Source: an uncultured Pseudomonadota bacterium
Lineage (GTDB): Bacteria > Pseudomonadota > Gammaproteobacteria > Steroidobacterales > Steroidobacteraceae
NCBI GenBank assembly: GCA_963794975.1
Contig: CAWCGL010000009.1
Span: 174,023-238,022 of the forward strand
Direction: 5' to 3'
Length of the DNA: 64,000 nucleotides
The notes under the pieces were generated by a model. The model was given only the letters and a program-made list of their open reading frames with translations, did no database searches and was not told where the DNA came from. The translations under genes were made by a program, and so were the position numbers. Positions 12,204 to 12,520 of the stretch are shown here, piece by piece. Position 1 is the stretch's first letter; every line of letters begins with the position of its first letter.

Positions 12204-12520
12204 GGGCCTGTAGCACAGCGGTTAGTGCAGGGGACTCATCGATAAGGTGCCTTCGCGTGGAAACGCGCGAAGTGGACGGGATGAATTCAGGGAAACCTTC
12301 GGGGCGTGCGCCCCATGGCAATCCTGAGCCGAGCCGCCGGTACACCGGCGGAAGGTGCAGAGACTACCTGAGGGCTTCGTGAAGCGCCCTTGATGACAGG
12401 CTAGAGCATCCCGCACCCTCACGCACGGCCAGTGCACGGGTGAAGAGATAGTCCACTCCCGGCGGAAACGGCGGGGTCAAGTGAATCCCTTGGTCGTAGG
12501 TTCGAATCCTACCGGGCCCA
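12204..12520 (+). tRNA. tRNA-Ile(CAU) (ileX/lysidine type) gene interrupted by a group I intron; exons 12204..12239 and 12484..12520
   Basis: The joined exons fold as a cloverleaf:
- acceptor stem GGGCCTG/CGGGCCC;
- D arm GCAC-AGCGGTTA-GTGC;
- anticodon stem GGGGA/TCCCT with loop CT-CAT-AA;
- variable loop TGGTC;
- T arm GTAGG-TTCGAAT-CCTAC;
- discriminator A.

The mature sequence closely resembles E. coli tRNA-Ile2 (GGTTAG.GCAGG.GACTCATAATC.CTTGGTCG) and lacks initiator features. No CCA is encoded. Confidence 0.8.
12240..12483 (+). ncRNA. group I intron (IC3-like, ORF-less, 244 nt) inserted directly 3' of anticodon CAU
   Basis: Conserved core strings are present:
- GUG guide at 12247-12249, which can pair with exon CAU (G.U at the splice site);
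- P2 hairpin CUUCGCGUG-GAAA-CGCGCGAAG (12251-12272);
- AAUUCAGGGAAACCUUCGGGGCG..CCCCAUGGCAAUCCUGAGCCGAGC (12284-12333);
- GAAGGUGCAGAGACUAC (12351-12367, J6/7-P7);
- AAGAGAUAGUCC (12443-12454, J8/7-P7');
- terminal G at 12483.

The order and sequence parallel the Azoarcus tRNA-Ile intron as I remember it. Confidence 0.8.

Follow-up and report, generated by a model that had tools for sequence, protein, structure and literature searches.

An ileX-type tRNA-Ile(CAU) gene in the 64-kb stretch of gammaproteobacterial DNA analysed here (64,000 nucleotides; hereafter referred to as the window) is, with high probability, split between tRNA positions 36 and 37 by a 244-nt group I ribozyme of the Azoarcus class that carries no ORF. 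The 5′ exon (12204–12239, + strand) comprises the 5′ strand of the acceptor stem, the D arm and the 5′ strand of the anticodon stem and ends in ...CUCAU, thereby providing the loop nucleotides C32, U33, C34, A35 and U36. The 3′ exon (12484–12520, + strand) starts with AAUCC and supplies A37 and A38, the 3′ strand of the anticodon stem, the variable loop, the T arm, the 3′ strand of the acceptor stem and a discriminator A. The intron (12240–12483, + strand), whose last base is G, is thus inserted after the fifth nucleotide of the anticodon loop, which reads CUCAU/AA. ARAGORN reported no tRNA in the whole window as it stands, whereas removal of 12240–12483 yielded a 73-nt tRNA with a standard cloverleaf and the anticodon CAU. 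Within ±6 nt of this junction, only one register combines U at position −1 with an intron ending in G, and it gives the anticodon CAU. We also searched metagenomes for the uninterrupted sequence from the D arm to the anticodon arm. Among the matches listed (at least 120), the predicted 73-nt ligated product was found verbatim as an uninterrupted gene on at least 20 contigs, and the existence of this exact joined sequence fixes the splice junction.

The 3′ CCA is not encoded in the tRNA gene (12520–12530; GGGCCCA followed by CACC). It is also missing from the tRNA genes of the closest relatives and is encoded by the homologues in Woeseiaceae and Dyella. Maturation of the tRNA-Ile(CAU) of the window would therefore need a CCA-adding enzyme. 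Upstream of the gene, the hexamer TACAAT was noticed by eye at 12187–12192, 12 nt 5′ of the tRNA start, with no recognisable −35 hexamer; a consensus promoter scan returned no sigma-70 site upstream of the tRNA on the + strand.

The Rfam covariance model Intron_gpI (RF00028) aligned end to end (model positions 1–253 of 253) with 12227–12475 on the + strand and scored 62.2 bits (E = 2.3e-13), the gathering score being 50 bits. To evaluate the fold quantitatively, we drew the helices P1–P9 for the window intron and tallied their pairs over an alignment of 53 tRNA(CAU) introns. Standard pairs occupied 95.8% of the cells, as compared with 35–41% when the 3′ partners were slid by 1–3 columns. Compensatory changes were seen in 42 of the 67 pairs, and none of 500 shuffles reached any of the five measures used. 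Covariation extended to every pair of P2, P6a, P9 and P9.0 and to some pairs of P3, P4 and P8; P1 (CAU/GUG), P5 (two outer pairs scored), P6 and P7 were invariant. These sequence comparisons show the fold of the intron, its boundaries and purifying selection on the ribozyme.

The 5′ half of the intron is organised as follows. P1 (12237–12249, + strand) is formed between exon CAU (12237–12239) and the guide GUG (12247–12249), with a U12239·G12247 wobble at the 5′ splice site; its three exon pairs are the same in 53 of 53 sequences, and the extension pair C12240–G12246 is CG in 50 and AU in 3. P2 (12251–12272, + strand) is a 9-bp hairpin with compensatory changes at all nine pairs and a GAAA tetraloop (12260–12263), which reads G-N-A-A across the alignment. 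The 5′ strand of P3, CGGGAUG (12277–12283, + strand), pairs in the alignment with the 3′ strand, CAUCCCG (12407–12413, + strand), in 98.6% of the cells, and four of the seven pairs are compensatory. P4 (12287–12292 with 12322–12327, + strand), which is 100% paired and has three compensatory pairs, encloses the J4/5 AAA and P5 (12296–12318, + strand), where CCUUCG...CAUGG stands instead of the canonical receptor CCUAAG...UAUGG. The segment 12328–12356 (+ strand) contains P6 (GCC/GGU) and P6a (12334–12340 with 12345–12351, loop UACA), all pairs of the latter being compensatory.

The guanosine-binding helix P7 is built from GCAGAGACUA at 12357–12366 and AAGAGAUAGUC at 12443–12453 (GACUA/UAGUC plus G12360–C12454). 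Its 5′ strand (G, a bulged A and GACUA; 12360–12366, + strand) pairs with 12449–12454, and the P7 strand agrees with the Rfam consensus AGACUA/AUAGUC. Because its six pairs are invariant in 53 of 53 sequences, P7 is uninformative on covariation. The P8 hairpin (12414–12442, + strand; outer 5 bp CACCC/GGGUG) is paired in 97.2% of the cells and is followed by J8/7 (AAGAGA) and the 3′ strand of P7 (UAGUCC) at 12443–12454 (+ strand), as placed by the Rfam match and the alignment. The last segment (12455–12483, + strand) holds P9.0, P9 and the terminal G12483, with compensatory changes at all three P9.0 pairs and all seven P9 pairs. P9.0 joins ACU (12455–12457) to AGU (12480–12482) and ends immediately 5′ of G12483; the 3′ intron boundary is supported because P9.0 co-changes in the relatives (ACG/CGU, GCG/CGC). 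The P9 hairpin (12458–12475) has one G·G mismatch (12462/12471) and a nearly invariant GAAA loop (12465–12468). A P10 pairing was not established, the P1 loop being too variable among the relatives.

The covariation thus supports a P3–P9 core with the P3/P7 pseudoknot of a group I intron, and the boundaries carry the corresponding marks, the U12239·G12247 wobble in P1 and G12483 as the last base. A sequence-only reading of this DNA had proposed a tRNA-Ile(CAU) gene split in its anticodon loop by a group I intron, with flanks that join into a tRNA with CAU, a GUG guide opposite the exon CAU, a GAAA loop on P2, two P7 strings and a terminal G. Each of these features was located at the coordinates given, and two of the computational checks that it had suggested, a covariance model search and covariation of the core helices, came out in its favour. 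Its description of the intron as ORF-less also holds, because 244 nt is too short for a homing endonuclease.

Homology with the self-splicing Azoarcus intron suggests that the window intron is itself catalytic. In the proposed pathway, the precursor would fold with exon CAU base-paired to the GUG guide, forming P1 with its U·G wobble, and a free guanosine held in P7 would attack after U12239. The terminal G12483, placed by P9.0, would then take the same P7 site, and the 5′ exon would attack after G12483 to give the 73-nt tRNA and the free intron.

By its sequence features, the intron is a member of class Ile2.5Ug, the Azoarcus type within the subgroup IC3 lineage. Four classical classes of bacterial tRNA introns are recognised, all IC3 and Ile2.5Ug among them, and 5292 intron-split tRNA genes have been recorded in about 80,000 genomes (Williams, bioRxiv 10.1101/2020.01.27.920355). 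Self-splicing in vitro has been shown for the Azoarcus tRNA-Ile intron, which is 205 nt long and sits in the anticodon loop (PMC13168695). The window intron resembles it in the host gene, insertion after U36, the lack of an ORF, the CAU/GUG P1 with a U·G wobble, the terminal G, the GNRA loops on P2 and P9 and the order P1-P2-P3-P4-P5-P6-P7-P3′-P8-P7′-P9.0-P9. It differs in being 39 nt longer, mainly owing to a 34-nt hairpin between P7 and P3′, and in its host, which is a gammaproteobacterium and not a betaproteobacterium. This comparison was made through proxies, the betaproteobacterial 202–205-nt introns L110, L105 and L025, which we take to be nearly identical to the Azoarcus sequence; the window intron is alignable with them throughout, at 58–62% identity and with shared helices. 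These shorter introns have no extra hairpin, and L110 (205 nt) has one receptor motif in P5 and one in P8, both missing from the window intron.

The gammaproteobacterial tRNA-Ile(CAU) introns are closer still. They share with the window intron the gene, the locus downstream of rpoD and the architecture including the extra hairpin, and they differ from it only in sequence and in how long the extension of P1, the loops L5 and L8 and the tip of the hairpin are. Among the matches listed in the genome search described below, intron identity to these relatives was 63–93%, or 71–93% when L078 and L031 were left out. The nearest of them, L017, is a gammaproteobacterial MAG from palsa soil with 93% identity in the intron and 100% in the exons, and no locus identical to the window was present among the matches listed. 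The cyanobacterial/plastid-type tRNA-Leu(UAA) IC3 intron (class Leu.3Ug) has related core strings, but it resides in another tRNA, is inserted after U34 and lacks a P7.1-like hairpin; its distance from P7 to J8/7 is 31–47 nt in all but one of the Leu.3Ug introns listed, as against 75 nt here.

We searched genomes, one per species, with a P5/P4′–P6–P7 pattern; at least 120 matches were listed, and the counts that follow are lower bounds and not a census. Among these matches, at least 52 further tRNA(CAU) genes had an intron after CAU (splice register corrected), at least 45 of these introns shared the gammaproteobacterial architecture, and at least 31 matches were tRNA-Leu(UAA) introns from Acidobacteriota, Alphaproteobacteria and Bacteroidota; the rest were in other tRNAs or were uncalled. 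The hosts of tRNA(CAU) introns include many Steroidobacteraceae, Woeseiaceae and unclassified gammaproteobacterial MAGs, together with Acidiferrobacterales MAGs and the cultured Dyella mobilis, D. psychrodurans and D. monticola. Other hosts are Betaproteobacteria (Pseudoduganella, Rubrivivax and a Neisseriaceae isolate), two Bacteroidota and one Opitutia MAG. In Granulosicoccus sp. 3-233, an intron bearing the extra hairpin lies beside rpoD in a tRNA that was not callable. The nearest relatives of the window intron among the matches listed are MAGs labelled Steroidobacteraceae or Gammaproteobacteria. The sequence-only reading was therefore right about the gammaproteobacterial context, as it was about the Azoarcus-type resemblance, which the alignment with the betaproteobacterial proxies and the shared helices bear out. 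It was mistaken in considering such an intron rare: in view of the further tRNA(CAU) cases listed, the catalogued class and the split tRNA genes counted in the 2020 survey, the intron belongs to a known class found in dozens of related gammaproteobacterial genomes and is not a rare outlier.

In the compact periphery of IC3 introns, P3′ follows P7 with nothing in between, and L2 contacts P8 and L9 contacts P5 by way of 11-nt receptors. The window intron departs from this by its 34-nt P7–P3′ hairpin and by the lack of CCUAAG...UAUGG, a difference that is peripheral and does not concern the core. The Rfam model handles 38 nt 3′ of P7 as an insertion, which folds as a two-part, P7.1-like hairpin (12367–12400, + strand) with an outer stem CCUG/CAGG and an inner stem GGGC/GCCC. 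Its internal loop is asymmetric: the 5′ side consists of A, and the 3′ side is a conserved UU(G/A/C)AU(G/A/C)A that is invariant in length. The inner stem covaries, from GC to AU or CG in 17 cells and, at another pair, from GC to AU in 9 cells. The hairpin is supported by this covariation and not by thermodynamics, its folding energy taken alone being not unusual (z = −0.76). The motif was present in 49 of 121 regions (the at least 120 listed loci plus the window), and all 49 were, among the matches listed, tRNA(CAU) introns or, at three contig-edge loci, rpoD-linked introns. Neither the 202–205-nt betaproteobacterial introns nor the Leu, Arg and other classes among the matches listed had it. 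Inspection of the sequence for a kink-turn or an 11-nt receptor in the extra hairpin showed that neither consensus fits.

The receptor CCUAAG...UAUGG was missing in 45 of the 46 hairpin-bearing introns, the window's included. As the canonical 11-nt receptors are absent, tertiary stabilisation must differ, and the efficiency of splicing is not to be assumed. We found no description of an IC3 intron with such an extra hairpin in the open-access literature text. A tentative idea, which we consider possible but rather doubtful, is that the gammaproteobacterial tRNA-Ile(CAU) introns constitute an undescribed IC3 structural subclass in which both 11-nt GAAA receptors were lost and the extra hairpin took over tertiary stabilisation, for instance by docking the L9 GAAA. 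If so, the clade would be a natural experiment in rewiring the tertiary contacts of a minimal ribozyme. A different insertion between P7 and P3′ (GUGAGGA...AAUA...) was observed in the tRNA(CAU) introns of L011 (a Burkholderiales MAG), L042 and L116 (Bacteroidota), which are similar to one another in this respect. Since it differs from the extra hairpin, more than one element can be accommodated at the P7/P3′ junction.

The split gene lies downstream of dnaG (6451–8307, 5′ of rpoD) and rpoD (8425–10566, + strand), both assigned by Pfam domains, and the two genes form its conserved upstream neighbourhood. The order in the window is dnaG, rpoD, a DUF4404 gene, GST, a small ORF and the tRNA, and dnaG–rpoD is upstream in at least 20 intron-bearing loci. 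Two of the contigs that carry the ligated product verbatim as an intact tRNA gene, L212 and L184, encode RpoD proteins 84–85% identical to the window's and have the order rpoD–DUF4404–tRNA, with dnaG upstream in L212; L184 begins within rpoD. In the window (10647–12172) and in its intron-bearing relatives, the interval from rpoD/DUF4404 to the tRNA contains the GST gene (11189–11800, − strand) and the small ORF (11903–12172, + strand). In the intron-free L212 and L184, where the gap from DUF4404 to the tRNA is only about 650 nt, no match to GST was found, and GST adjoins the tRNA in many more distant intron-free contigs. Directly 3′ of the tRNA gene, the window has a pair of genes for a BlaR1-type M56 peptidase and a BlaI-type repressor (12831–14809, − strand); a BlaR1/BlaI pair is also downstream of the intact tRNA in L132, an intron-free metagenome contig. 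In L194, L186 and L145, the uninterrupted tRNA-Ile(CAU) is on the strand opposite to rpoD, 1.4–7 kb apart, an arrangement that suggests local inversions around the gene. Elsewhere in the window, Rfam identified a c-di-GMP-I-GGC riboswitch aptamer (61402–61486, − strand; 75 bits against a gathering score of 59, E = 5.8e-16).

In a neighbour-joining tree of RpoD, on which sampling is biased by the choice of the intron-free set by tRNA pattern, the window grouped with L087, L043 and L054, all of which have the intron. Uninterrupted tRNA genes occur on the branches that follow (L186, L212, L184 and L145), and the intron-bearing Dyella are sister to intron-free contigs. As far as these sequences tell, this distribution shows several gains or precise losses of the intron at the same locus among close relatives. 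Intron similarity roughly tracks host relatedness, which would fit vertical descent with losses.

These comparisons bear on whether the window intron might be splicing-defective, in which case this copy would be a pseudogene and an intact tRNA-Ile(CAU) elsewhere in the genome would decode AUA. Although P9 contains the G·G mismatch, none of the core helices is broken, and at its invariant core positions the intron agrees with the family. Intact genes identical to the spliced product do exist in nature, but those found occupy the same rpoD-linked locus in other organisms and are not second copies; they look functional, and the exons of the window are 100% identical to them. The demand for AUA appears low, ATA codons being very rare in the window (3 of 3291 codons in seven ORFs), and our view of the source genome spans 64 kb. 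On the other hand, more than 45 species-level genomes retain this architecture while showing compensatory changes, which is unexpected for decaying pseudogenes. We thus consider a defective copy very unlikely and retain the reading of a split gene with an intron that is probably splicing-competent.

The interrupted gene is the counterpart, in both position and sequence, of E. coli ileX, that is, an ileX-type minor tRNA-Ile(CAU). In E. coli K-12 the order is rpsU–dnaG–rpoD–mug–ileX, and ileX, annotated as tRNA-Ile(CAU), is on the strand of rpoD. Of 5426 complete E. coli genomes, 5420 contain a match to the spliced sequence with a coverage of at least 80%, and the top matches lie under genes annotated as tRNA-Ile (82% identity, 100% coverage), one match place being an ileY-type copy. 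These best matches and the synteny with ileX uphold the Ile2 identity that had been read from the letters alone. The spliced tRNA has C4–G69, a listed Ile identity pair, and C5–G68, which we take to be a TilS determinant; C34 is presumably converted to lysidine.

ARAGORN, which types by anticodon alone, labels the spliced product as tRNA-Met, and two of the E. coli Ile identity pairs are not conserved: the window has A12–U23 and G29–C41 in place of U12 and C29–G41. G29–C41 is common to most of the clade; A12–U23 is confined to the closest relatives of the window, most others having U–A. An elongator tRNA-Met(CAU) is nevertheless highly improbable. The listed top E. coli matches all lie under tRNA-Ile genes, and the median of one matching place per E. 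coli genome indicates that tRNA-Met genes rarely match at the threshold used. The location 3′ of dnaG–rpoD agrees with ileX, and C4–G69 and C5–G68 are both present. Nor is the product an initiator tRNA, because G1–C72 is paired; G1–C72 and A31–U39, both present in the spliced tRNA, concern established initiator features and exclude that identity. The anticodon CAU thus stands on a non-initiator body that is nearer to the known tRNA-Ile2 than to tRNA-Met. A junction 2 nt upstream, reported by ARAGORN in its intron mode (-i) and giving tRNA-Gln(CUG), was rejected as almost certainly wrong, since it has C and not U at −1, breaks the CAU/GUG P1 that is invariant in 53 sequences, disagrees with a tRNA body of the Ile type and conflicts with the uninterrupted homologues, which read CUCAUAA in the loop.

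As the class is established, the split tRNA-Ile(CAU) gene leaves the current understanding of bacterial tRNA introns unchanged. It has a practical consequence for annotation: because ARAGORN misses the gene, genomes of this clade would seem to be without a tRNA-Ile2 for AUA unless they are annotated with tools that allow for introns. For comparative studies of RNA folding, the clade would be a useful source of dozens of naturally occurring variants of the minimal group I ribozyme that has been studied best, with an added, covarying peripheral hairpin and without the canonical tetraloop receptors. Finally, the intron-bearing and intron-free alleles of close relatives, having identical exons and residing at the same rpoD-linked locus, provide a clean system for the loss and gain of an ORF-less tRNA intron.
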